Shown: positions 9,780-64,000, counted from the first letter of the stretch. The stretch: 64,000 bases of DNA from Minisyncoccia bacterium (GCA_049274895.1 JBASTM010000005.1:9636-73635); one strand, 5' to 3'. Notes: generated by a model not told the origin, from the sequence alone. Translations and numbers: made by a program.

Positions 9780-9834
9780 AACATCCTGACATCCTTAAGA
9801 ATGTTGGTATGTTATTCTGTTCTAGCTCACCTTC

Positions 9835-9878
9835 TTAATCCCCACACCGATTTCGTAGCCGGAATGATTCCAGGTTTT
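9835..9878. repeat. 44-bp direct repeat, copy 1 (ttaatccccacaccgatttcgtagccggaatgattccaggtttt). It duplicates the 3-prime end of ileS and is a putative att site.
   Basis: Identical base for base with 12359-12402. Confidence 0.9.
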
Positions 9879-10287
9879 ATATAGAGAAGGTTATTTTGTC
9901 TCCCTCTCGAAGAAGCTCGTATTCTGTCGGCGGATGGCCGTTGAGCGCCATCGCTAATCTGCCCGGCGGATACCGTTTTTGGATTTCGGGATAAGAAGTA
10001 AAAATACTATGTAAAAGAAAAACAAACGGCGCATTTTCACTCATCATAATTTTAATTTTTGTTTGCCCCGTGATTGCTTCCATAACTGGATCAAATTCAA
10101 TAAACACACTGACTGGTTTTAACATTTCTCTATCCATACACATATAATATAGTCTTTTAAGCATCCGGCAAAACAAAATCCCAACAAATTTGGAGCCTGA
10201 CTGCTTAATTGTGGATAACTTTCGGTTAATTTTCGGCATCATAAATGATAAAATTATATTATCATGCCTACTATAACCCCAAAGCAA
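9877..10287 (-). CDS. Hypothetical small protein (136 aa) in the island
   Basis: ORF in AT-rich DNA. The C-terminal half (...ALNGHPPTEYELLREGDKITFSI) looks loosely like a beta-grasp fold, but this is not diagnostic. Confidence 0.35.
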   Translation of the reverse strand: MLWGYSRHDNIILSFMMPKINRKLSTIKQSGSKFVGILFCRMLKRLYYMCMDREMLKPVSVFIEFDPVMEAITGQTKIKIMMSENAPFVFLLHSIFTSYPEIQKRYPPGRLAMALNGHPPTEYELLREGDKITFSI

Positions 10288-11325
10288 AAACAGGTTCTTG
10301 ATTTTACGTCCGCTTTCATAAAAAATGAGGGCTTTGCTCCTTCAATAAACGAGATAAAAAATAATCTAGGGCTCAAATCCGTTGCCACCATACATCAACA
10401 TCTTCAAGCTCTTGAAAAAAAAGGTTACATAAAAAGAGAAAAAAACCAAAAAAGACACCTGGAAATAGTCGCTGAAATACCGCTGGTTATTAAGCCAGAA
10501 AAAATCGCCGACCAGACTAAAAAATACGACGCCTTACCCTTAAACCAAATAATCTGCGGAGACGCTGTAGAAGAATTAAAAAAAATACCCGATAATTCAA
10601 TAGACTTAGTAGTAACCTCGCCTCCTTACGATGAAATTAGAAAATATAATGGCTTTAGTTTTGATCTACACAAAACAGGAATGGAATTATTTAGAATACT
10701 TAAAAATGGCGGGGTGGCAGCTATGGTTATACAGGATCAAACCAAAAGTTTTGCAAAAACCCTGACATCTTTTAGAACAATCGTAGATTGGGTAGACAAT
10801 ATAGGTTTTCGGCTATTTGAAAACGTAATTTATAGGAAATACGGCACTGAAGGAGCGTGGTGGAAACACAGATTTAGAGTGGACCACGAATATATGCCTA
10901 TTTTTATTAAAGGTGAAAGGCCTCAATATTTTAATAAAGAACCATTAAAAGTGCCGTCAAAACATGGTGGAAAAGTGATGACTGGAAGTGGTAATAGAAG
11001 AACGGATGGTAAGACAACAAAAACCGTCACGAGGATCATAAACCAAATGAAGTGCAGAGGAACTATTTGGGATTACTTAAACGCTGGAGATAAAAACCCA
11101 CTAAAAAGAAAACATCCCGCCGTCTTTCCAGATAAAATACCTTTTGATTTTATCCAATGTTTTTGTCCTCCAAACGGTATTGTTTTAGATCCATTCATCG
11201 GCAGCGGATCAACCTCTGTATCAGCTAAAAAATTAAATAGAAACTTTATAGGAATCGATTTATCAAAAGAATACTGTGATTTAGCTCAAAAAAGGTTGGG
11301 TGAGACGCTTATTACGCTTTTATAG
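10264..11325 (+). CDS. DNA methyltransferase (beta-class N6-adenine/N4-cytosine type, SPPY motif) with an N-terminal LexA-like winged-HTH
   Basis: Motif IV (VVTSPPYD) precedes motif I (LDPFIGSGSTSV), which is the beta-class order. The N-terminus (VATIHQHLQALEKKGYIKRE) looks like a wHTH. Confidence 0.8.
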   Translation: MPTITPKQKQVLDFTSAFIKNEGFAPSINEIKNNLGLKSVATIHQHLQALEKKGYIKREKNQKRHLEIVAEIPLVIKPEKIADQTKKYDALPLNQIICGDAVEELKKIPDNSIDLVVTSPPYDEIRKYNGFSFDLHKTGMELFRILKNGGVAAMVIQDQTKSFAKTLTSFRTIVDWVDNIGFRLFENVIYRKYGTEGAWWKHRFRVDHEYMPIFIKGERPQYFNKEPLKVPSKHGGKVMTGSGNRRTDGKTTKTVTRIINQMKCRGTIWDYLNAGDKNPLKRKHPAVFPDKIPFDFIQCFCPPNGIVLDPFIGSGSTSVSAKKLNRNFIGIDLSKEYCDLAQKRLGETLITLL

Positions 11326-12348: not shown

Positions 12349-15300
12349 CTAGACCTTTTTAATCCCCACACCGATTTCGTAGCCGGAATGATTCCAGGTT
12401 TTGTGGACCAGAAAATTGTCGTTCTCGGCAATACCAAAATGGATTTGACTGGAACGGGTTTCGGATTTGATAACCTGCTCCCAACGGGAAAGAAACTCTT
12501 GAAAGTTCTGGTTTTGGCGGATGTCGTAATACAAAATTATTTTATCTTCGGGCGTTAAGCCGGCCTCTTTGCGCATATCGTTGATGTTGCGCGTCAGTTC
12601 GCGCACCAAACCCTCTTCTTTCAGCTCGGCGGTGAGTTCGGTATCCAGAACCACTGTGTCTTTGGCTATTTTGCGGTCGGCCAGAACTTTTTTAACATTC
12701 AATTCCGAAGCCACCAAATACAAAACGTCCCCAATCAAATTGTAATCCGCAGGTGAAAGATATAAGGCGTTTAAGGGCTGGCGGACTCTGATGCCGGTTC
12801 TAGCCCGCTCGGCCAGGCCCAAAGCCACAAGTTCGCGGGCTTTATCCATCACCCGCATTATTTCCGATTTCTTAGCCGACTTTGACGCCTTGGGCCAACT
12901 CTCCAAATGAACAGATTCTAAGTTACAAGTTACAGGTTTTAAGTTCTTGAGATTTTGATAAAGCCATTCGGCCAAAAACGGCGTGAACGGTGAGAGTAAA
13001 ATCGAGACACGTCTTAAAACCTCCGCCAAGGTTCGTTGGGCGGCCAGTTTTTCTCCGTCCATATTTTGTTTTTGAAACTTGCGTCTGGACCTGCGGATAT
13101 ACCAATTGGAAAGTTCATCCACAAATTCCTCAATGTCCCGCGCGGCCGAAGTTACACTGTAAGCATCAAGATGCTTAGCCGCGTCTGATTCCAAATCTGC
13201 CAAGCGCTCCAAAATCCAGCTGTCTAAAATATCCGGCCGGGCGGCCAGCGAGGCCGGAGCGTCGTCATAATAAGTTTCCAAAAAGAGATAGGAGTTAACT
13301 AGAGTATCAACAAAGCGGCGTTTTTTGGTCTCAAGGTCGCGCAGATTAAAAAGTTTGTTGTCGCCGGGCGTGTTTACGGTATAAAAATACCAGCGCATCA
13401 CGTCAAAACCGACTTTCTCGCCTACCAGCCACGGATCCACCATGTTGCCTTTAGATTTAGACATCTTTTCACCCTTATCATCCAGAACATGGTTTAAGCT
13501 GATGACATTCTTAAAAGGCGCGCCTTGGCCCAAGGCGGTAGCTACAGCCACAAGCGTGTAAAACCAGCCGCGGGTTTGATCTATAGCTTCACAAATGTAA
13601 TCCGCCGGGAAAAGATTTTTGGAAGCCCAGGGCATCGCTCCCGAATCAAACCAGACATCTATAAGATCCTTGACGCGCTCCATCCTGGACGAACATTGGG
13701 GACACTTGAGAAAAACAGCATCCACATACGGCCGATGTAGATCAAGATTGCCTTCAGCATCGTAAGGCCAGTTGTTGATTTTGAACTCGGTAAATTCGGC
13801 CGTGTCCAAAACCAGTTTGGATTTTTTCACGGCCGATTGGTAAGCGAGTTCAGTTTCGTCAGAACCGTATATCCCGCCCGAAGTTTGGATCAAAAACAAA
13901 GGGTCCATATGGCTAACCACGATAATTTTTTTACCCGGATGCTTATGGGAAACATCGGCCGTAAAATCACGCACCCTGCGGGCCACGTCCAACCACGACT
14001 CCCCCTGCGGCGGTGAGTGCACAAATCTGTCTTTGAAAGAACTGAAATAGTTACGGTAGGCCTCAACCGCTTGTCCGCTAAACTGACCGGTGTCTATTTC
14101 GCGCAAGCGCGGATCAAAAATTATGTTTTTTGTTTTAAGCTCATCAGCCACAATCTGCGCCGTCTCCCGGGCGCGCAGCAGGTCCGATGAATACACCGCC
14201 GTTGCTTTCTCTTTACCCAGACCCAACTTAATTTTCTTGGCTGCCGCTTCAACCTGCTTGCGGCCGCGCTCGGTCAGCGGATTCAATTTCTGTTCGGGAT
14301 AAGAACTGCAAAAACCTTTAAGATTGGACTCGGCCTCGCCGTGGCGCATTAAAATCAAAGTGGCCGGCGCATCGGTGCGGTTTTTATTCAAATCGTCCAA
14401 CGATCCAGCCACCAACCGGTGATCACATTTCCGGCATTCCCAAACCGGCAAGGGCGTGCCCCAGTAACGCTCGCGGCTGACGGCCCAATCTTTTACCTCG
14501 CGCAGCCACTCACCAAACCGGCCTTCTTTTAAGTGTTCCGGCACCCAATTTATTTTCTGATTATTTTTAATAAGCTCACGCCTTAAAGCCGACATTTTTA
14601 TAAACCAGCTCTCCTTGGCGTAATAAATTAAGGGCGATTGGCAACGCCAACAGAAAGGGTATTCGTGGCTGTAATCGGCTTCGTTAAAAAGCAAATTCTG
14701 TTTTTTTAAGTAAAATAGAATCGCTTTTTCCGTTAGCATGTCTTTCCGGCCCTCGCTGACAACAGGCAAACCGGCCACGATGGGAACTGATTTTATAAAC
14801 ACACCTTCGCGATCCACGGTGTGAAACTTAGGCAAACCGTGCCGCGCACCCAATTCAAAATCATCCGCGCCGTACATTACCGCGGTGTGGACTAGGCCCG
14901 TGCCTTCTTGGGTGCTTACAAAATCGGCGGGATAGACCTTATAAGATTGTGGCGACACCAACTCTTTGATCTTAAAAAGTGGTTCATACGACAACTTAGC
15001 CACTTCACTGGCTTTTAGATCTTTGATAATTTTGTAATCGCGATTGCCAAAAACTTTAGCCGCCAAATCTTTGGCTAAAATATATTTCTCGCCGTCCGAT
15101 TCCACCTCTACATAGTTGATTTTGGAGCCGACGGCCAAAGCCACGTTGCCCGGCAAAGTCCAGGGCGTGGTCGTCCAGGCCAAAAGATAAGTATCGGCTA
15201 AGCCCTTGACTTTGAACTTTACGGTAACTGATTTGTCGGTGACGGTTTCGTAGCCCTGAGCCACTTCGTGGCTGGAAATGGGCGTGCCACAGCGCACGCA

Positions 15301-15828
15301 AAAAGGCACAATTTTGTAATCTTTGACCAAAAGTTTCTTGTCCCAAAATTTTTTAATGATGCTCCAAACGCTTTCAATATACTGCGGTTCGTAGGTGATG
15401 TAGGGGTTTTTGAGATCCAGCCAAAAACCCATCCGGCGCGTCAGTTTTTCCCATTCGTCTTTATACTGCCACACTGATTTCCGGCATGCCTCGTTAAACT
15501 TGGCGATGCCGTATTTTTCTACTTCTTTTTTGTTCTTGAGACCCAACTTTTTCTCCACCTCAATTTCCACCGGCAGGCCGTGGGTATCCCAGCCGGCCCG
15601 GCGCGCCACGTAATACCCCTTCATGGTTTGATAACGGCAGATAATGTCCTTAAAAGCTCGCGCCAAAACATGGTGGATGCCGGGCCGGCCGTTAGCTGTG
15701 GGCGGGCCTTCGTAAAACACAAAAGCATGGCCTTTGGCTGTGGCCGCCAAAGACTTTTCAAAAATATCATTATCCTCCCAAAACTTGAGAGTTTTTTCTT
15801 CTTCTTTGATTAAATCAACCTGGCGCAT
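12349..15828 (-). CDS. ileS: Isoleucine--tRNA ligase with an inserted histidine-phosphatase (PGAM-like) domain
   Basis: HIGH-region PPTANGRPGIHHVLARAFKD, WAVSRERYWGTPLP, and KMSKS (KMSKSKGN). It also carries an internal ~200-aa segment with LILMRHGEAESN...LTERGRKQ...VVSHMDP motifs, which is foreign to IleRS. Confidence 0.9.
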   Translation of the reverse strand: MRQVDLIKEEEKTLKFWEDNDIFEKSLAATAKGHAFVFYEGPPTANGRPGIHHVLARAFKDIICRYQTMKGYYVARRAGWDTHGLPVEIEVEKKLGLKNKKEVEKYGIAKFNEACRKSVWQYKDEWEKLTRRMGFWLDLKNPYITYEPQYIESVWSIIKKFWDKKLLVKDYKIVPFCVRCGTPISSHEVAQGYETVTDKSVTVKFKVKGLADTYLLAWTTTPWTLPGNVALAVGSKINYVEVESDGEKYILAKDLAAKVFGNRDYKIIKDLKASEVAKLSYEPLFKIKELVSPQSYKVYPADFVSTQEGTGLVHTAVMYGADDFELGARHGLPKFHTVDREGVFIKSVPIVAGLPVVSEGRKDMLTEKAILFYLKKQNLLFNEADYSHEYPFCWRCQSPLIYYAKESWFIKMSALRRELIKNNQKINWVPEHLKEGRFGEWLREVKDWAVSRERYWGTPLPVWECRKCDHRLVAGSLDDLNKNRTDAPATLILMRHGEAESNLKGFCSSYPEQKLNPLTERGRKQVEAAAKKIKLGLGKEKATAVYSSDLLRARETAQIVADELKTKNIIFDPRLREIDTGQFSGQAVEAYRNYFSSFKDRFVHSPPQGESWLDVARRVRDFTADVSHKHPGKKIIVVSHMDPLFLIQTSGGIYGSDETELAYQSAVKKSKLVLDTAEFTEFKINNWPYDAEGNLDLHRPYVDAVFLKCPQCSSRMERVKDLIDVWFDSGAMPWASKNLFPADYICEAIDQTRGWFYTLVAVATALGQGAPFKNVISLNHVLDDKGEKMSKSKGNMVDPWLVGEKVGFDVMRWYFYTVNTPGDNKLFNLRDLETKKRRFVDTLVNSYLFLETYYDDAPASLAARPDILDSWILERLADLESDAAKHLDAYSVTSAARDIEEFVDELSNWYIRRSRRKFQKQNMDGEKLAAQRTLAEVLRRVSILLSPFTPFLAEWLYQNLKNLKPVTCNLESVHLESWPKASKSAKKSEIMRVMDKARELVALGLAERARTGIRVRQPLNALYLSPADYNLIGDVLYLVASELNVKKVLADRKIAKDTVVLDTELTAELKEEGLVRELTRNINDMRKEAGLTPEDKIILYYDIRQNQNFQEFLSRWEQVIKSETRSSQIHFGIAENDNFLVHKTWNHSGYEIGVGIKKV
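12359..12402. repeat. 44-bp direct repeat, copy 2, lying inside the 3-prime end of ileS
   Basis: Identical to 9835-9878. On the minus strand it encodes ...KTWNHSGYEIGVGIK of IleRS. Confidence 0.9.
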
Positions 15829-17039: not shown

Positions 17040-17397
17040 GGGGATGTAACGGCTTCGTCAAGAAGCGTATTGCTTTGGATTCGAGGTTGAGGTTGACCAC
17101 AAACTCATAAAACTGGTCGAAAACAATAAGTGCAAACTTATTTAACGCTAAACCAGCGTTTGCTGTAGCTTAAAAACTTCAGCCATCGTTCCGTCCCCGC
17201 CCGAAGGGATGGAAACGGTGCCAACTTTTCGGGCCGCTCTTTCAAACCAGGCGGGTTTGGAAGCTAAGACAATCGCCGAAAGTTCAACTTTTTTGGCCGT
17301 CCTTTAAGGGTTGGACTTAAAACAAGGGCGGTTAGACTTCGTAAAAATCCTGGCAAGAAACTTTTTGCACGCGGGTTCAACTCCCGCCATCTCCACC
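17040..17397 (+). ncRNA. ssrA: tmRNA (ssrA), with predicted tag peptide ANLFNAKPAFAVA
   Basis: The 5-prime end GGGGATG...GGATTCGAGG and the 3-prime tRNA-like end GCGGGTTCAACTCCCGCCATCTCCACC are complementary across an acceptor stem. There is an internal frame gca aac tta ttt aac gct aaa cca gcg ttt gct gta gct taa. The gene sits immediately downstream of smpB. Confidence 0.8.
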
Positions 17398-17496
17398 CCG
17401 TAAAGCAAAATATGCAGCATATTTTGCCACGGGGTAGGCACGTGATAAAATTTGAAAAATTTTTCAAATTTTATTTTACGTGCCACCTCGTAAAAC

Positions 17497-29315: not shown

Positions 29316-29542
29316 ATTGTTAGGAGCATCCGGCTCCTAAAAGAACATTATTACAATTTATTACAATCTTCCCCCTTTTCTGAACCTACCAGATACTTTT
29401 CTAGTGATAAGTTCGGAAAAAGAGAGTAATTACTCCTAAAAAGCCGATTCTTACTGTATATTCTAATTATACTCCCATTTTATACGTTTGTCAATAGCCA
29501 GGCCTAAAATCACCAAAAAACGGCCTTTTAGGCCGATTTATG

Positions 29543-29616
29543 TGTCTCCGGCGCGACTCGAACGCGCAACCTTCAGCTTCGGAGGCTGACGCTCTATCCA
29601 GTTGAGCTACGAAGAC
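29543..29616 (-). tRNA. tRNA-Arg (anticodon CCG)
   Basis: The reverse complement GTCTTCGTAGCTCAACTGGATAGAGCGTCAGCCTCCGAAGCTGAAGGTTGCGCGTTCGAGTCGCGCCGGAGACA folds as a cloverleaf with a 7-bp acceptor stem, a TTCGAGT T-loop and a CTCCGAA anticodon loop. Confidence 0.85.
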
Positions 29617-41543: not shown

Positions 41544-43205
41544 ATGGACAATGTTCAACAGCAGCGTGAAGAAAAATTAAGCGACATCCACCATACCGAA
41601 GAAGAAAAAGCTACTGAACGAAAGGCGCAGCAGCTGGGATTTAACTACATCAACCTGGCCGCTGTGCCGGTGGAGCGCGACAGCTTGCATTTTATTACTC
41701 AAAAAGACGTTGAACGAACTCAAACAATCGTCCTCCAAAAAAAAGGCGAAACCCTAAAAATCGGTTCGGTGGATCCGGCCAACCAGGAAACTAAGCAAAT
41801 TTTGGAACAGCTTGAGTCGCAGGGTTTTAAGACCGAAATTTTTATGATCTCTCGGCTATCGCTTAAAAAAGCCCTGGGAGAATTTAAGTTTCTGCCGTCC
41901 CAAACCAAAGGCGGACTGACCTCGGGCGAAGTTTCGCTTGGCGATATTGAAACTTTCAAAAAGGAACTCGGCACTTTCGCCTCGCTTAAAGAAAAATTAA
42001 ATAAAATAGATCAAAGCGACATCGGTTTGCTTTTGGAGATATTTTTGGGCGGAGCGTTAAATTTGGAAGCATCCGATATCCACATTGAACCCTCAAAAGA
42101 CAACGTTCCGATCCGCTTCCGTTTAGACGGGGTCCTACAATCGGCTGGAACCGTTTCCCCGGCTATTTATCAATCCCTGCTTTCGCGGATAAAACTTCTT
42201 TCCGGATTGCAGATAAATATACAGAACATTCCTCAAGACGGCCGGTTTACGATAAAAGAAAAGGGTGAAATGGGAGAAAAGGGAGAAATGGAGATAGAAG
42301 TTAGAACATCGGTTCTGCCCGGCGCCTGGGGCGAATACATAGTTTTGAGGATTCTTAACCCCAACGCGATCCGCCTGGAAATTAAAGATTTGGGGATTAG
42401 AGATTATTTATGGCAGAGTTTGGAAAAAGAATTAAAAAAAACCAACGGCATCATTCTGGTAACCGGCCCCACGGGTTCCGGTAAAACCACCACACTCTAC
42501 GCTTTTCTTAAACACCTAAACAAGCCCGGGGTAAAGATAGTCACGCTGGAAGACCCCATAGAATACCATCTGGAAGGCATCAACCAATCGCAGATAGAAC
42601 CGGAGCATGGCTACACCTTCGCGGCCGGCCTGCGGTCGGTTTTAAGACAGGACCCCAACATTATTCTGGTGGGCGAAATCAGAGATGAAGAAACTGCCGA
42701 CGTGGCTTTGCACGCCGCGCTGACCGGGCATTTGGTTTTTTCCACCCTGCACACCAACGACGCCGTCGGCGCCATACCCAGATTTTTGGATCTAAACGCC
42801 AAACCGCAGATTCTGGCTTCGGCCTTGAACGCGGCCGTGGGCCAAAGATTGGTCAGAAAATTGTGCCCGAGCTGCAAAAAAGAAATCTCTTTGGATATAG
42901 AAAAAATAAAAAACGCGCTGGCCAGCGTGGCTGGTTTTGACTGGCCGAAAGAAATTAAAACCTATCAAGCCGCGGGTTGCGAAAAGTGCGGCGGCAGTGG
43001 CTACAAAGGCCGGGTGGGTATCTATGAGGTTTTGTTGGTGGATGAAAATATGGAAAAACTGGTGGGCGCTAACCCCAGCAATCAGGATATTTTAACCCAA
43101 GCCCGAAAAAGTGGTTTTGTAACTATGTACCAAGACGGCTTAATGAGAGTGTTAAGCGGTGAAACAACTCTGGAAGAAGTGGAGAGAGTTACAACCCAAA
43201 ATTAA
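41544..43205 (+). CDS. Type II secretion/type IV pilus assembly ATPase (GspE/PilB family)
   Basis: Walker A VTGPTGSGKTTT, Asp and His boxes, and a tetracysteine CPSC...CEKC motif. Confidence 0.85.
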   Translation: MDNVQQQREEKLSDIHHTEEEKATERKAQQLGFNYINLAAVPVERDSLHFITQKDVERTQTIVLQKKGETLKIGSVDPANQETKQILEQLESQGFKTEIFMISRLSLKKALGEFKFLPSQTKGGLTSGEVSLGDIETFKKELGTFASLKEKLNKIDQSDIGLLLEIFLGGALNLEASDIHIEPSKDNVPIRFRLDGVLQSAGTVSPAIYQSLLSRIKLLSGLQINIQNIPQDGRFTIKEKGEMGEKGEMEIEVRTSVLPGAWGEYIVLRILNPNAIRLEIKDLGIRDYLWQSLEKELKKTNGIILVTGPTGSGKTTTLYAFLKHLNKPGVKIVTLEDPIEYHLEGINQSQIEPEHGYTFAAGLRSVLRQDPNIILVGEIRDEETADVALHAALTGHLVFSTLHTNDAVGAIPRFLDLNAKPQILASALNAAVGQRLVRKLCPSCKKEISLDIEKIKNALASVAGFDWPKEIKTYQAAGCEKCGGSGYKGRVGIYEVLLVDENMEKLVGANPSNQDILTQARKSGFVTMYQDGLMRVLSGETTLEEVERVTTQN

Positions 43206-44667: not shown

Positions 44668-47415
44668 CTACTCTCCTTCCGACCTTCCGAAAAGATCGGC
44701 GAAGATGAAGAAGTCGTCGTTATCGACCCGGCTATCCCCATTGAGATCGAAAACTCTGATCTCGGCCGGAGATAAAGACGGATCGCCGAATTTATCAGCG
44801 AACAAGAAAAAGTCCTGAAAATCAAGCGCGCCGTTATTGTCAAAATCAGCCAGTTCCGCCGAAGCCACGAACAGTTTGGCTTCGCCGATCAGGCCTATCA
44901 CATGAGGCCTGGCTCCAGCGTTGTGGAAGAAATACAACCGTCCTGCCTTTTCTCCCACTACCTGCGGAGTAAAACTAACGGTCACGGTATCGGCGAGCCC
45001 CGGCGCCAAAGTGGTGGAATCGGTATTCACCCAGAAACTACCACTGACATCAACCAGGAACCAGTTTCCTTCCAAAACAGCGTTGCCGAGGTTCCGGATC
45101 GGGATTCCGACATAACTCGTATCACGACCAACAAAGATACTGCCGAGATCAACCTGCGTTGCGGAAATATCCAACCGCGGACCGGACACGACCGTGTCCG
45201 TTGAGTCCTGCGTGGCTTGGGATCTTGCCTCTCCGGTGAGAATCACGTTCCTTGTTTCACCGCCGTAACTAATGATCAACCGACCGCTCTTTACTCCCGC
45301 CGACTGAGGAGCAAACCTGACGACGATAGTTCGGTCCTCCGAACCCGGAGAGATACTGAACGAATCCGCCGAAGTCACACTAAACGAATTATCTCCGTCC
45401 AGCGTAATTCGGCCGTTCAATTGGGCCGTACCCGTGTTGAATACCCGGAAACTGGAAATGATCCCACCCCCAACGTCTATAGCGCCAAACTGGAGTGAAT
45501 CAGAATCCACCCTCAAAATCGGCGCCAAAGGTTGAGGCACCAAAACAGTAACGAAGAATCGGAAAGGTTGGGCATCACCGCCGCCGGGTCCGAATACAGT
45601 CAGTATGGGGCGATAAACCCCCGGCTGGCTGTAGGTGTAAGTCAGCGTATCGCCATTGGCATGCCTGATGATGCTAACCTGTCGGCCGGCCTCGTCGCGA
45701 TCTCCAGGCTTCCAATCCCAATAGGTCGCGAAACCGCCGGAATTGGTATTGGAGAAACGAACCGTGAGCGGAGCCGGACCTTCTTGCTTATCTACCGAGA
45801 TATCCACTCTCGGGGTGGCAAAGAAAACCGGTGTTGTCCCGGATAGCGGAATGGAAAGCGCCGGGTTGGCCGTGTTATTGGCCAACACCAGCACCGCGCT
45901 CTTGGGGCCCACCGAAGCCGGCGTGAAGGTAACATTGATGAACCGGCTTTGGCCCGGATCCACCGAGAGGTTGGTTCGAGACAAAGAAAAATGCGAAGGG
46001 TCTTCACCGCCCAAAGCGATACCGTAAACCACTAAAGGCGCGCTACCGGGATTGGAAACAGTCAGATCCACCGTTCGGGACGAACCGACCCCGACCGTAT
46101 CAAAAACGACGGAGTTGGGTGTGATGGCAATCGCCGCGCCGGAAGTTCCCGGCAAGAAAGGAGTGGCCAGGCCCGTCAGCGGCACCGTTGAGATTCCGCC
46201 GGGCGCGTTGTGCGAGATATTGACGACCGCCGATTTGGCGCCCGCCGTGACCGGTAGGAAAGACACTACCACTATTCTTCTCCCGCCGGCCTCAATGATC
46301 GCGGAGTTCATACTGACCAGAAATTCCGCGGCATTGGCACCGCCCACGCTTATGTTGCTGATGTTAAGCGTGAGGGTGCTGTCGTTGCGGATCTCAAACG
46401 TTTTGTAAGCACCCGGACCGCCCACCGCAAGACTATCCATAGCCAGCGACGCGGGCAAAAGCGTGATACCCGGTACTGCAGGTGAAGGCGTTGGAGGAGG
46501 TGGTGTCGAACCGCCCGAACCACCGCCGGAGGCGACGCCATTGCCGGACACCGCCACCACCGTGGGGCTGTTGACCCCGTTATGCGTAATGGTGACGTTG
46601 CCGGAAGCGGCGCCGACCGCAGTCGGTACAAAACTGACCGTGACCGACGTGCTGTCGCCAACGTTCACGTTGACGCTCGGCGGAATGGCCGGTGCCAGTG
46701 TGAAAATACTGTTGTTGGACGAAACCGCCGTGACAGCCAGCGCCGCCGTGCCGGTGTTCCTGACGCGGAACTGCTGTTGGGCTGTCGCGCCGACGTTCAC
46801 GTCTCCGAAGTTGATGGTAGCGCTCGGCGACACCGCCGCCTGGCCCAGAGGAACAAGCGACCCGAAAACAGAAATGATGGGACTGTTCTGTAGATTAGAA
46901 CTGTCCCAACTCTTACCCGTTTTTAGATACATATAGCCGCCGGAGGTCACGATGCCGTAATTTGACCCGCTGGTGCCTCTGACCGCTTTGAAGAAATTTC
47001 TGGCGTCGGAAGCGCCGGAACGGGTATACACGACCGCGATGGAACCCAAGGGTACCACGAACGTCGGAAACGTCAGTTCGTGGCGCGAGCCCGAAGCGCT
47101 GATGGCCGATCCCGCGACCGAACCGCTGGCCAGCAAAGTTCCGTCGGGCGAACCCTGCCTTACTTCTATGACAGCGTTATCCGACGGACTACCGACTTTC
47201 GTCAGCTGCACCGCCACCCTGTTGATGGGGGCCGGTTCCGAGAACTGAAGCGGCATAGCCACTTTCCAGTTGTTGGAACTGTCGGCGATGCCGAAATTGA
47301 CGAAAGCGCCGCCGTCGTTAGAAACTCCGCCCAGATCCACCACTGTCTGGGCCGGCAAGTTTGCCGCCCAGACCAGCATGAGAACGGCCAAAAATCGGCC
47401 GAAAGCACGGTTCAT
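44668..47415 (-). CDS. Large secreted surface protein: signal peptide, multiple ASH/choice-of-anchor-D Ig-like repeats, and a C-terminal dockerin-like tandem Ca-binding motif. It is GC-rich.
   Basis: Repeated FG.V.VG...F.V.NTG.A.L motifs. The C-terminal DFDNNGALDFQDF...DLNGDSRVDNDDF looks like a dockerin type I duplicated segment. GC is well above the window average. Confidence 0.65.
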   Translation of the reverse strand: MNRAFGRFLAVLMLVWAANLPAQTVVDLGGVSNDGGAFVNFGIADSSNNWKVAMPLQFSEPAPINRVAVQLTKVGSPSDNAVIEVRQGSPDGTLLASGSVAGSAISASGSRHELTFPTFVVPLGSIAVVYTRSGASDARNFFKAVRGTSGSNYGIVTSGGYMYLKTGKSWDSSNLQNSPIISVFGSLVPLGQAAVSPSATINFGDVNVGATAQQQFRVRNTGTAALAVTAVSSNNSIFTLAPAIPPSVNVNVGDSTSVTVSFVPTAVGAASGNVTITHNGVNSPTVVAVSGNGVASGGGSGGSTPPPPTPSPAVPGITLLPASLAMDSLAVGGPGAYKTFEIRNDSTLTLNISNISVGGANAAEFLVSMNSAIIEAGGRRIVVVSFLPVTAGAKSAVVNISHNAPGGISTVPLTGLATPFLPGTSGAAIAITPNSVVFDTVGVGSSRTVDLTVSNPGSAPLVVYGIALGGEDPSHFSLSRTNLSVDPGQSRFINVTFTPASVGPKSAVLVLANNTANPALSIPLSGTTPVFFATPRVDISVDKQEGPAPLTVRFSNTNSGGFATYWDWKPGDRDEAGRQVSIIRHANGDTLTYTYSQPGVYRPILTVFGPGGGDAQPFRFFVTVLVPQPLAPILRVDSDSLQFGAIDVGGGIISSFRVFNTGTAQLNGRITLDGDNSFSVTSADSFSISPGSEDRTIVVRFAPQSAGVKSGRLIISYGGETRNVILTGEARSQATQDSTDTVVSGPRLDISATQVDLGSIFVGRDTSYVGIPIRNLGNAVLEGNWFLVDVSGSFWVNTDSTTLAPGLADTVTVSFTPQVVGEKAGRLYFFHNAGARPHVIGLIGEAKLFVASAELADFDNNGALDFQDFFLFADKFGDPSLSPAEIRVFDLNGDSRVDNDDFFIFADLFGRSEGE

Positions 47416-57908: not shown

Positions 57909-58193
57909 TTTTTGTTTTTCTTGGTATATGTTAACTTTTGGGCCCGAGAGGAAGTGAAAGCAAACCAAAACATTGGCGGCGGCGGTGAGAAGAACTTTCA
58001 ATTCGCTGCCAATTATATCACAGTGGTACCAATAGCAAATTTAACCAAAATTATATCAAAAGTGGATAACCTGTTGAAGAGGTGTGTAATACAATTTGCT
58101 TTATCTTTCAAATCATTACCTGTAAGCATACTTCTCTTCTAAATTGTCTAATTTTTAATTAAATAATAAATGTGATAATATAGTCCGAACATT
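57909..58193. promoter_or_regulatory. AT-rich region between divergent dnaA and rpmH, with a DnaA box (agtggataa) and promoters; a candidate oriC/incC part
   Basis: One near-consensus box and an AT-rich unwinding-like stretch. Confidence 0.4.
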
Positions 58194-58337
58194 ATGAAAA
58201 TAACCAAATATCGCCCCAAAAACAAAAAAAGAGCCAGAACTCACGGCTTCCTTAATAGGATGTCGGACGCCGCCGGCAGGAATACCCTAAAAAGAAGAAG
58301 ATTAAAAGGCAGGTATAGCTTATCCGTTTCCGTTTAA
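58194..58337 (+). CDS. rpmH: 50S ribosomal protein L34
   Basis: My own translation gives [47 protein letters not shown], a classic L34. It is immediately upstream of rnpA. Confidence 0.8.
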
Positions 58338-58340
58338 GTT

Positions 58341-58625
58341 GTGTTGGGTATGAAATTCACCAGCGAGCTGTTTGATGTATATATTTCTCCGGCCAGGACC
58401 CCAACCGATCGTCGGGTTGACGTGGTGGTTGGCGTTAGGGTGTCAAAAAAGGCAGTCGTCCGGAATCGTTTAAGAAGACAGTTAAAGGAAATTTTAAGAT
58501 TATACCTCCAGACTGGTAATTCCTCCGGGTATTATTTGAGGGTGGCCGCCAAACCACCTTTAATCAATCAGAAATTCAGTCAGATTAAAAAGCAAATTGA
58601 GGCTGTCTTGGATAAAATCAAATGA
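58341..58625 (+). CDS. rnpA: Ribonuclease P protein component
   Basis: Basic RNR motif region (VRNRLRRQLKE) and its position after rpmH. Confidence 0.8.
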   Translation: MLGMKFTSELFDVYISPARTPTDRRVDVVVGVRVSKKAVVRNRLRRQLKEILRLYLQTGNSSGYYLRVAAKPPLINQKFSQIKKQIEAVLDKIK

Positions 58626-58852
58626 GGCGCCTACTCATCATTTTCGTAAAAAGCTATCAAAAATTATTGTCGCCGCAGACCGGTGTTTTTAGGTTTATCT
58701 ATCTCTGGCCGGTATTGTCGCTTAATCCCACCGTCTGGGCCGGTTGCCGCCATTATCCATCCTGCTCGCAGTATTGCATCCAAGCCATTTCCAAACATGG
58801 AGTCTGGCAAGGTCTTGTGCTGACAGTTAAAAGAGTAATTGGTTGTAGATAA
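58622..58852 (+). CDS. yidD: Membrane protein insertion efficiency factor YidD
   Basis: CRHYPSCSQYCIQAISKHG motif. Confidence 0.8.
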   Translation: MRRLLIIFVKSYQKLLSPQTGVFRFIYLWPVLSLNPTVWAGCRHYPSCSQYCIQAISKHGVWQGLVLTVKRVIGCR

Positions 58853-58854
58853 AA

Positions 58855-59574
58855 ATGCTTGCCTTGTTTCACGAATTACTGTATCGCCCCCTATTTAATC
58901 TTTTGGTGGCTTTTTACAATTTTATTCCCGGCTCCGATGTGGGCCTGGCTATTATAGCCACGACTTTGATCATCAAACTAATTTTTTGGCCGATGACCCA
59001 AAAAGCCATAAAATCGCAAAAAGCCCTGCAGGATCTCCAACCTAAAATAAAAGAGCTTCAGGAAAAATATAAAACCAATAAAGAAGAACAAGCCAAACAA
59101 CTGATGCTTTTTTATAAAGAAAATAAAATAAATCCTCTCTCTGGTTGCCTGCCTCTTTTGGTGCAATTGCCCATTTTAATAGCTTTGTATCAGGTTTTTT
59201 TGAAGGGTTTTGATCCGGCCAACCTTTCGGTTTTGTATAATTTTGTAAGCAATCCCGGAGTTATTGATCCTGATTTTTTGGGTTTAATGGATTTATCCCA
59301 TTCCAATAAAGCCCTCGCGGTTTTGGCCGGAGCCACCCAATTTTGGCAGGCCAAAATGATTTCTCCCAAAAAGAAATTGCCCGGAGCGCCCAAAACCTCC
59401 GACGAGTTTATGGCCCAGGCCATGTCTAAGCAGATGCTCTATTTTTTGCCTGTACTGACGGTGGTAATTTCCTGGACTTTGCCGGCCGGCTTGGCTCTTT
59501 ATTGGGTGGTAACCACTCTGTTTACCATAGTCCAGCAGTATGTTATTATGCGTTCCGCACCAACTACCGAATAA
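58855..59574 (+). CDS. yidC: Membrane protein insertase YidC (short Gram-positive-type)
   Basis: Five TM helices with conserved PLLVQLPILIALY and the C-terminal region. Confidence 0.85.
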   Translation: MLALFHELLYRPLFNLLVAFYNFIPGSDVGLAIIATTLIIKLIFWPMTQKAIKSQKALQDLQPKIKELQEKYKTNKEEQAKQLMLFYKENKINPLSGCLPLLVQLPILIALYQVFLKGFDPANLSVLYNFVSNPGVIDPDFLGLMDLSHSNKALAVLAGATQFWQAKMISPKKKLPGAPKTSDEFMAQAMSKQMLYFLPVLTVVISWTLPAGLALYWVVTTLFTIVQQYVIMRSAPTTE

Positions 59575-59589
59575 ACTCGGTGCGGAATT

Positions 59590-60048
59590 ATGGATAAAGG
59601 AGAAATTGCCAAAGAGTTTGCTTCTAAAATGTTCGGTTTGATCGGGGTTGAAGCCGAATTGGGCATGGAAACCTCCGATGGCCGGACCAGAGTGAACGCT
59701 TCTGTGGATGAAGCGGGTTTTTTAATTGGTCGAGACGGCGAGAATCTTAAGGCCTTTCAGCATATTCTGGCCTTGATGGTTTCTAAAAAGATGAACGAAC
59801 TGCTGACGCCGGCCAGTTTTGTTTTTGACATCAATAATTATCAAAAAGAAAGAGAAGATTATCTTATGGCTCTAGCTAAAAACGCGGCCTACCAAGTTTT
59901 AGAAAACAAAAAACCGGCTGAACTGGAGCCGATGTCGGCCGCCGACCGCCGGATTATTCATTTAACCGTGGAGAAAATCGGAGGCGTTAAAAGCGAAAGC
60001 GCGGGCGAAAGAGAAAATAGAAGGGTGATAATAAGTCCGGAAAGTTAG
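59590..60048 (+). CDS. Jag/KhpB-like RNA-binding protein (KH/R3H)
   Basis: The gene follows yidC and carries a C-terminal R3H-like ADRRIIHLTV motif. Confidence 0.7.
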   Translation: MDKGEIAKEFASKMFGLIGVEAELGMETSDGRTRVNASVDEAGFLIGRDGENLKAFQHILALMVSKKMNELLTPASFVFDINNYQKEREDYLMALAKNAAYQVLENKKPAELEPMSAADRRIIHLTVEKIGGVKSESAGERENRRVIISPES

Positions 60049-61169
60049 AGTGTTAAACGGTACAGTCGGCCGTCTATTTTATTTATAAAAAACAGGTAAG
60101 ATTCATCGGGCGCCAAGAACATATTGGCGGCATCAAAAACACCCTCTATCATTTTTTGTTTTTGACCTGTGTCTAAATTGATTCTGATGATTTCCTCGCC
60201 GTCAGATTTAATTTTTCTTTTATAGTAATCATCGGGCATAATATAATCGTTGGAAGTTTTGATGATACTGCAAAGCAAAGTCCGGTCATCTTGCGACCAA
60301 ACGCATTTCTCCGGCAGGGCGAATTCGTTAATAGCGCTTTGGGTGTTTTTTTCCAGATTGATTGACCGCAATTTCAAATCAAAACCATCCTCTTCGGTTT
60401 CCGAAATTAAAACTTTTTTACCCGAAGGCGAAAAGAGCGAAGTCAGGCCGTAAACATTGCCCGCTATTCGGCTTATTTTTTTAGTTTTTAAGTCTAAATT
60501 ATACAACAACCCCCAGGCCAGGCCCGAGGGCTTGGTTTTTAAGGCCACCGAGTTTTCGCTATACCAATCTAAAACCAGATCGGGTATTTTAGTCGCGGTT
60601 ATGTTTTTGGCCCCGGAAAGGTCGCTTTTGGCTGTGGTTATTTTGAATGTGTTGCCTTCTGGAGATAAAATAGCCAACTCATCGCCGAGCGGACTTAACG
60701 ACAATCCGATTGTATTGGTGGGCAGGGCTTTAAGCGATTTATTTTGGGTGTCATAAACCAGATAGCGGTTTTGGCCCGAAGTGAGGGCATATTTCACGGC
60801 TATCAGACGGCCATTGGGGGAAACCGCGGCCGCTCCGATCCGTTCCACGGCAACGAGTCCGATCTTGTTTTTATTCCCACCGTTAAAATCTATTTGGTTG
60901 ATAACCCCATCCCAAGCCACATAGGTTATTTTTTGTTCCGTTGACTCCGCGTCACTGACCACAGCCGCGCCCAGCACCGTTTCTTGAGTGATGGCCACCA
61001 ACCGCTCTTTCTCGGCGGGCGCTACCACTTCGCCTCCCAAAAGATCCTCGGGCGGGGCGGCGGGCGGCAGTGCTATTTTTTTGAAAAAGAAATAGTAAAC
61101 CAAAAGGCCTATAAACACAATGCTTAAGATGGCGGCCAAAACGATTAGAATTTTTTTGGATTTGGACAT
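60045..61169 (-). CDS. Membrane-anchored beta-propeller (TolB/PD40-like) protein
   Basis: N-terminal TM helix followed by repeated beta-strand blades. Confidence 0.45.
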   Translation of the reverse strand: MSKSKKILIVLAAILSIVFIGLLVYYFFFKKIALPPAAPPEDLLGGEVVAPAEKERLVAITQETVLGAAVVSDAESTEQKITYVAWDGVINQIDFNGGNKNKIGLVAVERIGAAAVSPNGRLIAVKYALTSGQNRYLVYDTQNKSLKALPTNTIGLSLSPLGDELAILSPEGNTFKITTAKSDLSGAKNITATKIPDLVLDWYSENSVALKTKPSGLAWGLLYNLDLKTKKISRIAGNVYGLTSLFSPSGKKVLISETEEDGFDLKLRSINLEKNTQSAINEFALPEKCVWSQDDRTLLCSIIKTSNDYIMPDDYYKRKIKSDGEEIIRINLDTGQKQKMIEGVFDAANMFLAPDESYLFFINKIDGRLYRLTL

Positions 61170-61171
61170 TT

Positions 61172-61927
61172 TTATTCAGTTGACGGTGTCAAGACGCATG
61201 TATTGTTTTGGCACGTACCCACAAAACATCCGGTATCACTGGCTCCAGTAGGAGCGCAAGCCCCTCCTGTCGGCCGTCTGAGTGTACAAACACCTTGCTG
61301 TCCGGGAACACCTGGGGTTAGATATTCTCCAGTCGTTGGATTTAGACAACGTTCCTCGTCTCCGGCACAAGGATTATCTGTAGTGCAAGCCGATTTTTCC
61401 GTGTCTGCTACAGCTACACAGGCTCTGTTTTGGCATTTCAGTCCTGCTTTGCAGTCATAATTACCGCTACATTGGTTACCGATGTTGCCATCGCCATGTC
61501 CTATTTGTCCAAAAAGTTTTCTATAAAAATCATAATCACTCGTTACGGGAAAATTCACGCTCGGATTTCTGATTTGGACCAATTGGGGGTTGATAGTGTA
61601 GAGAAAAATATAAGAGCCAAGAAGGATTATCAGGCCTAAAACCGCGCCCGTGATGCGTTCTTTGGCGACCTTGACCTGACCTTCGTTGCCCCGCGCCGTC
61701 ATCCATTCCACACCGCTCCGCACCAGAGCGTAAATTATAGCCAGGCCCACCAAGGCCTGGCTCATTAAAAATATATATCTTATCCATTGCGCCGGACCCA
61801 TAGAGTCGGTTACTTTCACTCCCTGAACCGAGGGGAAATCAACTTCCAAAGCTAAAACCGCGGTCGGTAAAGTTAGTAACAGAATGGTTGCAGTTATTAT
61901 ATAAGACTTATAGGACAAATAGGACAT
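61172..61927 (-). CDS. VirB2/TrbC-like pilin-topology protein with a long Cys-rich C-terminal extension
   Basis: Signal sequence, then two hydrophobic helices separated by a short loop, then 14 Cys in the last 90 aa. Confidence 0.35.
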   Translation of the reverse strand: MSYLSYKSYIITATILLLTLPTAVLALEVDFPSVQGVKVTDSMGPAQWIRYIFLMSQALVGLAIIYALVRSGVEWMTARGNEGQVKVAKERITGAVLGLIILLGSYIFLYTINPQLVQIRNPSVNFPVTSDYDFYRKLFGQIGHGDGNIGNQCSGNYDCKAGLKCQNRACVAVADTEKSACTTDNPCAGDEERCLNPTTGEYLTPGVPGQQGVCTLRRPTGGACAPTGASDTGCFVGTCQNNTCVLTPSTE

Positions 61928-61935
61928 ATTAAAAA

Positions 61936-62775
61936 TTATTTAATTATCTTTATCTCCGCCGTGCGCTCGGCCCGGTCGTAAATATTCTGTCCGGCTTTTT
62001 TGTTTTTTAACTCTAAGCGCAAATTGGCGGAGGTGCCCGGGATCAGTTTAGGATTTATGGTTAAAGGCAAAATCTCCGGCCGAGGATTGGAATTTTCTTC
62101 TTTCTGGCCGTCAAAGCGCCAGTTGTATTCCAGATTGGCTAGATTTTGAGTATTAAAGTAAAACGGCCGCACCATCAAACTGCTTTCCCGCCCCGGGGTA
62201 AACTTTAGAGTGTCGGGCGCCAGATTGTTATAGTTGTCGTTGTGGCCGATGTAAAAATAGGTTTCGGGTGAAACCGTTCTTATGTTTAAGGCGGCGCTAC
62301 CTTTGCGGCCCTGATCGTCTTGGGCAAAAACTCTGATTTCATGCGTAAATTGCGGCGTTTGGAAAGCGGTAATGGTAAAGGTGTTTTTACCCCGGCCTTG
62401 CAGTTCCGGCCCGTCTTTATTGGAGGAAATATCGTCTACCAGCCAAGTGTAAATCAATTTTTCCGGATTAGGCGCGTTGGCCGCGGCATGCAGGGTTATA
62501 AACGACAATGGCGAGGGCAGGGCTTTGCCGGGGTAGTCGTAGGGTAAAAGGGTGTTGGCTTTCCAGATTATATCCAAATTAAAATCATTGCCGGCTTCAA
62601 CCGCGCTTTGCTTAAAAGCCGTTTCGGCGATGGTGTTGATGGCGCTTTCTATTTGATCCAAATCCGCTTCGCTGGCCTGTTCCAAGTATTCCTGGGCCGA
62701 AGAAAAACCAGCCAGTCCCGCCGCCAGAATCATCGCGGCTGACACTATAAAAATTTTTATTATATTTAATTTCAT
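61936..62775 (-). CDS. Hypothetical secreted protein
   Basis: Signal peptide only. Confidence 0.4.
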   Translation of the reverse strand: MKLNIIKIFIVSAAMILAAGLAGFSSAQEYLEQASEADLDQIESAINTIAETAFKQSAVEAGNDFNLDIIWKANTLLPYDYPGKALPSPLSFITLHAAANAPNPEKLIYTWLVDDISSNKDGPELQGRGKNTFTITAFQTPQFTHEIRVFAQDDQGRKGSAALNIRTVSPETYFYIGHNDNYNNLAPDTLKFTPGRESSLMVRPFYFNTQNLANLEYNWRFDGQKEENSNPRPEILPLTINPKLIPGTSANLRLELKNKKAGQNIYDRAERTAEIKIIK

Positions 62776-63167
62776 TTAGCGAAAGATTCTATAAAGTTTA
62801 ACACCCTGCCGATTCTCGTATTTTCTTTTTGGTGAGCTCGCCAAACAAATATGCTCCAAAAAGAAACGGCCGACCATACCGGTATAAATTCCCCCACTCC
62901 TTTTCTAATAAGCCGCTTATATAATCGTCTTTTGCCAAAGTTCATATTTTTGCGAACATATAAATATATAATTGGTAACGTCAAAAGGTTTGTTACTAGG
63001 CCGGTCGTACCCAAAGTGACAATATCGACAATATCTTTAGTTAAAGCGGCGGTAAAGACCATATATGGAAAATTATGTTCTTTAACCTGGCCGTTTTTTG
63101 CGGTATCTATCTCCTCTTGGCTTATTCCATCAGCTTCCAACATGGCCAGTTCTGTTTCTTGATCCAT
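62772..63167 (-). CDS. Small membrane protein (VirB3-like, by position)
   Basis: Two TM helices, immediately downstream of the VirB4-like ATPase. Confidence 0.35.
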   Translation of the reverse strand: MDQETELAMLEADGISQEEIDTAKNGQVKEHNFPYMVFTAALTKDIVDIVTLGTTGLVTNLLTLPIIYLYVRKNMNFGKRRLYKRLIRKGVGEFIPVWSAVSFWSIFVWRAHQKENTRIGRVLNFIESFAK

Positions 63168-63171
63168 AGTT

Positions 63172-64000
63172 TTATTGACTTTGTTCTGCCAGTTCCCGTT
63201 TGGCCGCTTCTATTTCCAATAACTGCGCGGGATCGGAAGTGATGACCTGATCTTCGGTGTAGGAAGCCACCACTTTTATGGCCGCCCGTTTCAGACCCGC
63301 CAGAAAAATACCCTCGCCCACGTTGGATTCCAACAGCAAAAATTTTTCCTCGTCGGTCAAATTAAAAGTCTGGGCCACCATGTCTATGGCCGCCGGCGAC
63401 TGTTTTAACAATATCTGTATGGACGAGTTGGTCACGATGGGCTTGCCGAAGGGCGATTTCATAAAATCTTCCACGTCTTGGGTGATGGTGGTCAGGCCCA
63501 AAAAATATTTGCGGCATCTTTTAGCGATGCTAAAAAGAAAGGCCGCGGCCTCGGCGTGCTGAAGCATCCACCAGGCCTCGTCCACCACCATTATCCTTTT
63601 TTTCTTTTGGTAGCGTATCAGGTTCCAGACAAAGTGGAGCAAAATATACATGGCGATGGGGCGCAGTTCCGGTTCCAGATCGCGTATGGAGAAAACCACC
63701 AGACTATTGTTGAGCGTAACGTTGGTGGGTTGATTCAAGAAACCCGAGAAAGTGCCCTTAACATATTTTTCCAAACGCACCGCCAGATTCTGGGCGCCCT
63801 GCATATTTTGTAAAACCGTATAAAGATCGCCCATCAACGGGGCCGTTTTGCCTTTCCAGTCGGAATTGATGCTGATGTCGCGGGAGGCATAAGTTTCGGT
63901 CAGCGCCCGATCTAAAATAGCGTCTTCTTCCGGAGTTAAAGCCCCCAGCATCACTTTTAACAGGCCGGTTAGTTGAATAATGTTAGCTTTTAAGATTTCG
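63172..64000 (-). CDS. VirB4/TrbE-like T4SS ATPase C-terminal part; the gene continues beyond the window
   Basis: Walker B MVVDEAW, followed by ...RKYFLGLTTITQ... (the conserved VirB4 C-terminal motifs). The frame is open through position 64000. Confidence 0.65.
   Translation of the reverse strand, partial: EILKANIIQLTGLLKVMLGALTPEEDAILDRALTETYASRDISINSDWKGKTAPLMGDLYTVLQNMQGAQNLAVRLEKYVKGTFSGFLNQPTNVTLNNSLVVFSIRDLEPELRPIAMYILLHFVWNLIRYQKKKRIMVVDEAWWMLQHAEAAAFLFSIAKRCRKYFLGLTTITQDVEDFMKSPFGKPIVTNSSIQILLKQSPAAIDMVAQTFNLTDEEKFLLLESNVGEGIFLAGLKRAAIKVVASYTEDQVITSDPAQLLEIEAAKRELAEQSQ

Follow-up and report, generated by a model that had tools for sequence, protein, structure and literature searches.

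The probable 3′ end of a Patescibacteria-type chromosomal type IV secretion operon in a Minisyncoccia bacterium

Introduction

Patescibacteria carry a type IV secretion system (T4SS) whose VirB4 ATPases form a monophyletic clade nested in MPF-FATA, and the system derives from the MPF-FATA conjugation machinery of monoderms (Quinonero-Coronel et al. 2025, PMC12102498). Genes for TrsD, PrgI/VirB3, VirB6 and a VirB2-like protein (PF18895) are found near virB4, relaxases are almost absent, and in Paceibacteria the T4SS lies near dnaA, dnaN, rnpA, rpmH and ksgA (PMC12102498). Transposon sequencing (Tn-seq) identified the T4SS and its pilin array as essential to epibiotic growth in Southlakia epibionticum, for which neither a coupling protein nor a relaxase could be recognized (Wang et al. 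2023, PMC10633639). A 2025 review describes the patescibacterial systems as the one Gram-positive-type T4SS with VirB2-like pilins (PMC12857230). Here we analyze a 64,000-nucleotide stretch of a Minisyncoccia bacterium (GCA_049274895.1, JBASTM010000005.1:9636-73635), referred to in full as the window, that ends inside a virB4 gene. The window edge is likely, at a probability of about 0.8, to hold the last five genes of a Patescibacteria-type chromosomal T4SS operon. Because the system was described between 2023 and 2025, the locus adds one more instance of a machine already known.

Results

Five packed genes at the window edge

ORF (open reading frame) calling recovered five ORFs, all on the minus strand, that span 60045 to beyond 64000. 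The same five had been proposed as a T4SS-like membrane cluster in an earlier note made from this DNA. In the order of transcription, the features are as follows.

63172..64000, minus strand: VirB4-family T4SS ATPase, C-terminal 275 codons (Pfam, NCBIfam, motifs)
62772..63167, minus strand: p131, small membrane protein with an acidic cytoplasmic N-terminus (hydropathy, family alignment)
61936..62775, minus strand: p279, exported or membrane-anchored protein with an N-terminal hydrophobic helix (AlphaFold2 model, topology)
62272-62592 (residues ~62-168) and 61939-62268 (residues ~170-279), minus strand: modeled immunoglobulin (Ig)-like β-sandwich domains of p279 (AlphaFold2)
61586..61927, minus strand: p251 core, VirB2-like pilin module (Pfam, topology)
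61172..61585, minus strand: p251 tail, 137-residue C-terminal extension with 12 Cys, hypervariable and predicted extracellular
60045..61169, minus strand: p374, membrane-anchored β-propeller of 374 residues (AlphaFold2, Foldseek)
61083-61163 (residues 3-29), minus strand: transmembrane (TM) helix of p374, followed by a Pro/Ala-rich disordered linker
60048-61001 (residues 57-374), minus strand: propeller of p374

The intergenic spacing from virB4 to p374 is +4, −4, +8 and +2 nt, and the five-gene set looks like one translationally packed operon. The end of the p374 gene overlaps the convergent jag/KhpB gene (59590-60048, plus strand) by 4 nt. A promoter and terminator scan gave nothing interpretable inside the operon.

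For comparison we assembled 80 related genome loci, with VirB4 61–91% identical to the window copy, and two metagenome loci (L002 and L003). Protein families were surveyed across these loci by jackhmmer; several of the contigs not counted below end early. The gene order virB4–p131–p279–pilin–p374 is kept in most of the 80 genomes. The p131 gene is directly 3′ of virB4 in 53 loci, p279 and the pilin hold their positions in 67 and 68, respectively, and p374 is the final operon gene in 62.

A VirB4 ATPase of monoderm type

The ORF at the edge remains open through the end of the window and contains the VirB4/TrbE C-terminal motifs that the earlier note had recognized, with the Walker B motif VVDEAW at 63571-63588 and the RKYFLGLTTITQ motif at 63478-63513. 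The fragment matched Pfam P-loop_TraG with 69.4 bits (cut-off 25.8; E=2.9e-19). Its best NCBIfam match was the CD1110-type VirB4 (conju_CD1110, E=1.8e-47), followed by F-type TraC, VirB4 of mycoplasma integrative conjugative elements (ICEs) and VirB4/CagE, with weak matches to CedB and CedD. These hidden Markov model (HMM) matches identify the ATPase as a monoderm-type VirB4 (CD1110/MPF-FATA) and not an FtsK/HerA-type protein, the alternative that the earlier note had set against its own proposal. A full-length orthologue (L008:9053-10828, 88% identical) scored 373 bits against the CD1110 model, relative to a curated cut-off of 325. This orthologue has a Walker A motif (AKSGSGKS), in a region that lies outside the window in the copy studied here.

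The database search returned 2758 homologues at E≤1e-10, and those with names are mostly from Patescibacteria, Parcubacteria or Paceibacterota. Chromosomal VirB4 orthologues of Paceibacteria are 61–91% identical, whereas the nearest plasmid VirB4s, which come from monoderms (Embleya, Streptomyces, Bacillus and others; Actinobacteria, Firmicutes), are 30–37% identical. Together with CD1110 as the best HMM, the closeness to 80 Patescibacteria genomes and the distance from plasmids give indirect support for placing this VirB4 in the patescibacterial clade.

In the relatives VirB4 is split into an ATPase ORF of ~600 residues and a separate N-domain ORF of ~222 residues (9053-10828 and 8382-9050 in L008, respectively; all 49 loci with upstream DNA). 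The shorter ORF aligns to the first ~120-240 positions of VirB4 HMMs and weakly to TrsD, and the split N-domain agrees with the ‘TrsD’ reported previously (PMC12102498). An apparent gap of ~300-560 bp before the called virB4 start in L002 and L003 proved to be a start-codon artefact. The ATPase ORF is continuous, at about 545-600 residues, in L002 and close relatives, and a distinct TrsD-like ORF precedes it.

Two database labels met in this search deserve mention. A VirB4 with 67% identity is deposited as ‘Promethearchaeota archaeon’ and is probably bin contamination. Many third-party annotation (TPA) metagenome-assembled genomes with this Parcubacteria-type cluster bear the title ‘uncultured Candidatus Saccharibacteria’, seemingly by default.

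The upstream part of the operon in relatives

Close relatives with long flanks (L006, L008, L010 and L011) share one gene order, in which an upstream part leads into virB4 and the genes seen in the window, and housekeeping genes follow.

Positions 1-4: ksgA; a protein of ~260 residues with one TM helix; an exported protein of 880-1100 residues; a protein of 640-760 residues with 7-8 TM helices (VirB6-like candidate)
Positions 5-8: a protein of ~230 residues; PrgI/VirB3; a TrsD-like protein of 222-235 residues; VirB4 of ~595 residues
Positions 9-12: p131; p279; pilin; p374
Positions 13-14: on the opposite strand jag, yidC, yidD, rnpA and rpmH; then dnaA and dnaN

Since the window stops inside virB4, we infer the upstream part from relatives with VirB4 86–91% identical. 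The five genes would thus be the 3′ end of a conserved cluster of roughly 11 genes that extends from the ksgA side to jag-yidC-rnpA-rpmH-dnaA. Upstream sequence exceeds 7.5 kb in 49 loci; all of these have the TrsD-like gene and PrgI, 46 have the 7-8 TM protein, and the remaining upstream genes are present in 39-43. PrgI/VirB3 of the relatives is matched by Pfam at E=9e-13. For the VirB6-like candidate, the family match is a weak one to TrbL_3 in L003 only; the L008 orthologue matched neither Pfam nor NCBIfam.

Some relatives have extra small genes between the T4SS genes that are absent from the part in the window. These encode a PD-(D/E)XK protein (PDDEXK_3) in L008 (7702-8088) and a ‘23S rRNA intervening-sequence protein’ in L002 (14568-14936). 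Two further extra ORFs, at 883-1254 and 7411-7797 in L011, are without annotation.

A chromosomal, origin-proximal position

The neighbors of the cluster are ruvC, yebC, dnaN, dnaA, rpmH, rnpA, yidD, yidC and jag, and the same slot (ksgA ... jag-yidC-rnpA-rpmH-dnaA) is occupied in dozens of species. Cumulative GC skew is lowest at about 54-56 kb. Near-consensus DnaA boxes are enriched window-wide and three lie in the intergenic regions flanking dnaA; as only these three flank the gene, the position of oriC rests mainly on gene order and GC skew. The GC content of the cluster (0.458) is like that of the window (0.469), the flanks are constant, and the nearest tRNA is 30 kb away, so no boundary of a mobile element is apparent. 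Scans with Rfam and for tRNAs found no RNA elements in the T4SS region.

Family assignments were obtained for 17 of the 20 larger window ORFs, mostly to housekeeping functions (among them IleRS, PolA, PBP1, UvrB, PolX, PilB, RNase J-like, tRNA synthetases and a Mur ligase), and three remained unassigned. No relaxase, VirD4/TcpA or integrase was detected among these 20 ORFs, and no relaxase or coupling protein among the called genes in the 10-kb flanks of the relatives. The locus is chromosomal and origin-proximal and, with no relaxase or coupling protein among the scanned ORFs, is not a mobile or conjugative element. The earlier note had left open whether a conjugation-like or a candidate phyla radiation (CPR)-type host-interaction apparatus is partly captured here, and had proposed HMM searches and a look for a nearby relaxase or oriT to tell a conjugative element from a chromosomal system. 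The matches to the VirB4 and VirB2-like pilin families, the upstream genes of the relatives and the relaxase result favor the chromosomal, CPR-type apparatus.

Transcription of the T4SS operon runs towards dnaA/oriC and is convergent with that of jag (58001-64000; also in L006, L008, L010 and L011). If the origin adjoins dnaA, the operon meets the replication fork head-on and rpmH-rnpA-yidD-yidC-jag are co-directional with it.

A VirB2-like pilin with a Cys-rich tail

The protein encoded at 61172-61927 on the minus strand, p251, has 251 residues, divided into a pilin core and a long tail. The core consists of a signal peptide, with probable cleavage after VLA and before LEVDFP, two TM helices and a conserved TINP motif; Gly72 and Gly98 are invariant. 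T4SS_pilin was matched by 28 of the 30 aligned sequences, namely the window copy and 29 orthologues (best E=3.5e-11), and TrbC/VirB2 by four. The L008 orthologue scored 33.6 bits, above the Pfam cut-off. In the Protein Data Bank (PDB), the family profile matched only VirB2 of the Agrobacterium T-pilus (8cue), and that marginally (E=0.95). On the matches of its family to PF18895 and PF04956, p251 is assigned to the T4SS_pilin/VirB2-like family. It resembles the VirB2/TrbC/TraA pilins, including the T-pilus protein, in its signal peptide, two-helix hairpin and weak TrbC matches, and differs from them by its 137-residue Cys-rich C-terminal extension; sequence similarity to them is marginal. To our knowledge, known VirB2-type pilins lack such an extension.

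The tail contains 12 Cys, at residues 153-244 (61196-61471). The pilin-like two-helix topology described in the earlier note is thus borne out, with 12 rather than the 14 Cys counted there. Tail length ranges from 1 to 432 residues among 65 pilin orthologues. In 44 of these 65 the tail has at least four Cys, and the count is even in 43 of the 44, a pattern shown by disulfide-bonded extracellular domains. The tail had no PDB match, and its Pfam matches were all below threshold (DUF7107, E=0.06; EB module in one orthologue). Both termini of F and T pilins face outward, and by analogy the p251 tail would lie on the filament surface. Extracellular disulfides are plausible, since MdbA-like oxidoreductase and VKOR are enriched in CPR genomes (bioRxiv 335083). 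No Cys-rich T4SS pilin in Parcubacteria came up in literature searches.

The small membrane protein p131

The hydrophobic segments of p131 are consistent with two TM helices, as the earlier note had described; a crude hydropathy scan called one in the window protein and one to three in its orthologues. In the family alignment Asp45 is invariant and Pro96 nearly so. No convincing Pfam or PDB match was found, and weak DUF4112 matches in 9 of 37 members are unconvincing. The earlier note had also labeled this protein VirB3-like. An hhalign comparison of the p131 family with the PrgI family of the same loci gave a probability of 0.2%, p131 had no Pfam match to PrgI, TcpE or VirB3, and the true PrgI gene sits upstream of virB4 in every relative with enough upstream sequence. 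The label is therefore unsupported, and PrgI is a different gene.

The tandem-Ig protein p279

The AlphaFold2 model of p279 has a predicted local distance difference test (pLDDT) score of 75 overall and about 85-90 over both Ig-like domains. Foldseek returned generic Ig, fibronectin type III (FN3) and cadherin-type matches only, and there was no Pfam or NCBIfam match. A VirB9- or VirB8-like identity was considered and rejected, with no T4SS component among the 50 best Foldseek matches listed. Previously noted as a secreted protein, p279 does have an N-terminal hydrophobic signal or anchor.

The β-propeller protein p374

The p374 model (pLDDT 90.7) contains 28 strands, which suggests about seven blades. 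Foldseek matched it to tricorn, oligogalacturonate lyase, TolB and WD40 propellers at E about 1e-12 to 1e-10, with the best TM-scores (0.54-0.59) to oligogalacturonate lyase and tricorn propellers. The family profile matched TolB at E~3e-12, and PD40 repeats were found in 16 of 57 orthologues. These results, with the single N-terminal TM helix, agree with the membrane-anchored propeller of the earlier note. A Cys289/Cys300 pair is invariant in the family, and some orthologues are fused to a PG_binding_1 domain.

Although p374 shares the propeller fold and PD40-type repeats with TolB/PD40 propellers, it lacks the N-terminal α/β domain of TolB, having a TM helix and linker instead, and its strand count suggests about seven blades rather than six. 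Patescibacteria are thought to be monoderm (PMC12102498), and Tol-Pal and an outer membrane are not expected. For these reasons p374 is not regarded as a TolB orthologue; the likeness is at the level of the fold only.

A steep conservation gradient

Among the seven closest relatives (within L004-L013), the VirB4 C-terminus is 86–90% identical. Identity in the same seven falls to 33–48% for p131, 33–58% for p279, 44–61% for the pilin core and 47–60% for p374, and is lowest for the pilin tail, at 16–35%. Such a steep gradient is expected if the downstream proteins are surface-exposed and evolve under host pressure. Signal or anchor helices in the downstream proteins, the invariant Cys pair of p374, its fusion to PG_binding_1 in some orthologues and the even Cys counts of the tails are also of extracellular character. 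The gradient supports, but does not prove, a view of the downstream proteins as the extracellular working end of the machine.

Other features of the window

The sole RNA genes detected in the 64 kb are a tmRNA at 17040-17398 (plus strand; tag ANLFNAKPAFAVA) and a tRNA-Arg(CCG) at 29542-29616 (minus strand). An IleRS-like class I tRNA synthetase of 1159 residues (12349-15828, minus strand; tRNA-synt_1, Anticodon_1) has a complete histidine-phosphatase domain (His_Phos_1) inside it, at residues 491-644, an unusual fusion or insertion. At 44668-47415 (minus strand) is a 915-residue protein of repeated ASH/HYDIN/DUF1573 Ig-like domains, located in the GC-richest patch of the window (0.54-0.57, relative to an average of about 0.47). 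A PilB-type T2SSE ATPase lies close to it (41544-43205, plus strand) and suggests a type IV pilus locus. A LexA-type DNA-binding domain fused to an N6/N4 DNA methyltransferase (10264-11325, plus strand) is encoded where the window is richest in AT (GC 0.34 at 10-12 kb).

Discussion

The locus shares with the described Patescibacteria T4SS (PMC12102498; SEML1_0004-0019 in Southlakia) a monoderm-type VirB4, a PF18895 pilin, the absence of a relaxase or type IV coupling protein (T4CP) nearby, and a chromosomal position beside dnaA, dnaN, rnpA, rpmH and ksgA. Its relatives also share separate TrsD-like and PrgI/VirB3 proteins and a polytopic VirB6-like candidate. Southlakia has an array of six short pilins, whereas the locus has one pilin gene, whose long tail is putatively disulfide-rich, and no lysozyme or peptidase (VirB1-like) gene follows virB4. 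With the MPF-FATA systems of Firmicutes and Actinobacteria (CTn2 CD1110 type, pCF10 Prg, pGO1 Trs) the locus has in common the CD1110 VirB4, in its relatives also a PrgI-type VirB3 and a TrsD-like protein, and, in line with a monoderm envelope, the lack of an outer-membrane core. It departs from them in its low VirB4 identity to plasmids (at most 37%) and in having a VirB2-like pilin, a component absent from the Gram-positive systems. No relaxase, T4CP, PrgB-type adhesin or VirB1 hydrolase was detected, and the locus is chromosome-fixed, not mobile.

From established T4SS biology, a working model can be outlined. VirB4, whose gene in relatives follows those for a separate TrsD-like N-domain protein and PrgI/VirB3, would act at the cytoplasmic membrane, and with the polytopic VirB6-like protein it would form the translocon. 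Extraction of the VirB2-like pilin from the membrane, energized by VirB4 with PrgI and the VirB6-like protein, would then yield a pilus or conduit. Judging from the adjacency of their genes, p131, p279 and p374 may be extracellular or envelope parts of the same machine, and the variable, disulfide-rich pilin tail may decorate the exterior of the filament. The tail and the envelope parts would contact the host cell, and the machine would serve the episymbiotic lifestyle through exchange of macromolecules with the host, not through conjugation.

Several observations weigh against reading the window edge as part of such a machine. Of virB4 the window has just the last third, and the upstream genes all lie outside it. 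Its pilin scored 21.7 bits against Pfam T4SS_pilin (E=2e-4), below the cut-off of 26.6. The essentiality data come from a Saccharimonadia model (PMC10633639). VirD4 homologues are found in most genomes, usually far from virB4 (PMC12102498), and the genome could encode a coupling protein or relaxase at another site. Finally, p131, p279 and p374 resemble no known T4SS component, and no β-propeller is listed in the Southlakia T4SS annotation (PMC10633639), which indicates that the propeller is not universal in the patescibacterial system.

These last points bear on a narrower view of the locus, in which only virB4 and the pilin belong to a T4SS and p131, p279 and p374 are unrelated envelope proteins, such as adhesins or cell-wall proteins, that share the operon. 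Ig-like and propeller folds are generic surface modules, and p131 or p279 is missing from several loci. The membership of the three proteins in the machine depends on conserved adjacency. That adjacency is strict: the order is fixed, the spacing is overlapping or near zero, and the arrangement persists across lineages in which the proteins are only 20–35% identical. The pilin gene lies between p279 and p374, which places all three inside the T4SS operon. In Southlakia, too, an Ig/E-set protein that is exported and essential (SEML1_0005) is encoded beside the virB4-side genes (annotation table, PMC10633639). We consider it improbable that the three proteins are bystanders.

Far less probable still, to the point that we give it little weight, is that the genes belong to a conjugative element, such that an ICE or integrated plasmid would use them as its module for DNA transfer between cells. 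In favor of this, the VirB4 has homology to conjugative VirB4/TraC/CD1110 ATPases, most of its nearest plasmid homologues reside on plasmids with a prediction of conjugative transfer, and a few Patescibacteria do carry relaxases (PMC12102498). Against this stand the scans of the 20 larger ORFs and of the relatives' flanks, where integrases were likewise absent from the called genes, the constant slot in dozens of species with GC equal to its surroundings, and the 37% identity of even the best plasmid VirB4. A more serious contender, though still an unlikely one, is that the same apparatus works as an importer, in a Ced/ComB-like uptake of host DNA, RNA or nucleotides. Patescibacteria lack nucleotide synthesis, and import has been proposed (PMC12102498). 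A 2026 preprint reports that a cultured Minisyncoccota parasite feeds on host RNA, with tubular structures, possibly T4SS pili, at the interface. The VirB4 weakly matches the archaeal DNA importers CedB (5.4e-9) and CedD, but these scores are far under that for conjugative VirB4 (35 versus 373 bits), and no sequence feature indicates direction or substrate. Wang et al. favor protein export or an alternative role (PMC10633639).

Under the preferred reading, a Patescibacteria-type chromosomal T4SS operon, p131, the tandem-Ig protein and the propeller could together with the tail-bearing pilin constitute a Paceibacteria-specific extracellular module of the T4SS that has so far gone unrecognized. 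We put this forward tentatively, as somewhat more doubtful than not. The main text of PMC12102498 mentions no propeller, TolB, PD40 or Ig-like protein, and ties no cysteine to the pilin. What is modestly new is the recognition of p131, the tandem-Ig protein and the propeller, all three conserved here, as members of the Paceibacteria operon; such components are not discussed in the text of PMC12102498 or PMC10633639. If the module is real, it would be a decorated conjugative-type pilus with a fast-evolving surface that sets host specificity. Envelope parts that diverge several times faster than VirB4 would fit an arms race with hosts.

No T4SS had been shown to be essential to its carrier's growth before the patescibacterial one (in Saccharimonadia), which is a leading candidate for how ultrasmall episymbionts extract what they need from their hosts. 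The locus described here adds no new principle to that picture. The comparative work provides a concrete T4SS parts list for Paceibacteria, the most species-rich class, and its three conserved, uncharacterized envelope proteins and variable pilin tail are targets for cryo-electron tomography, interaction mapping and host-range studies.

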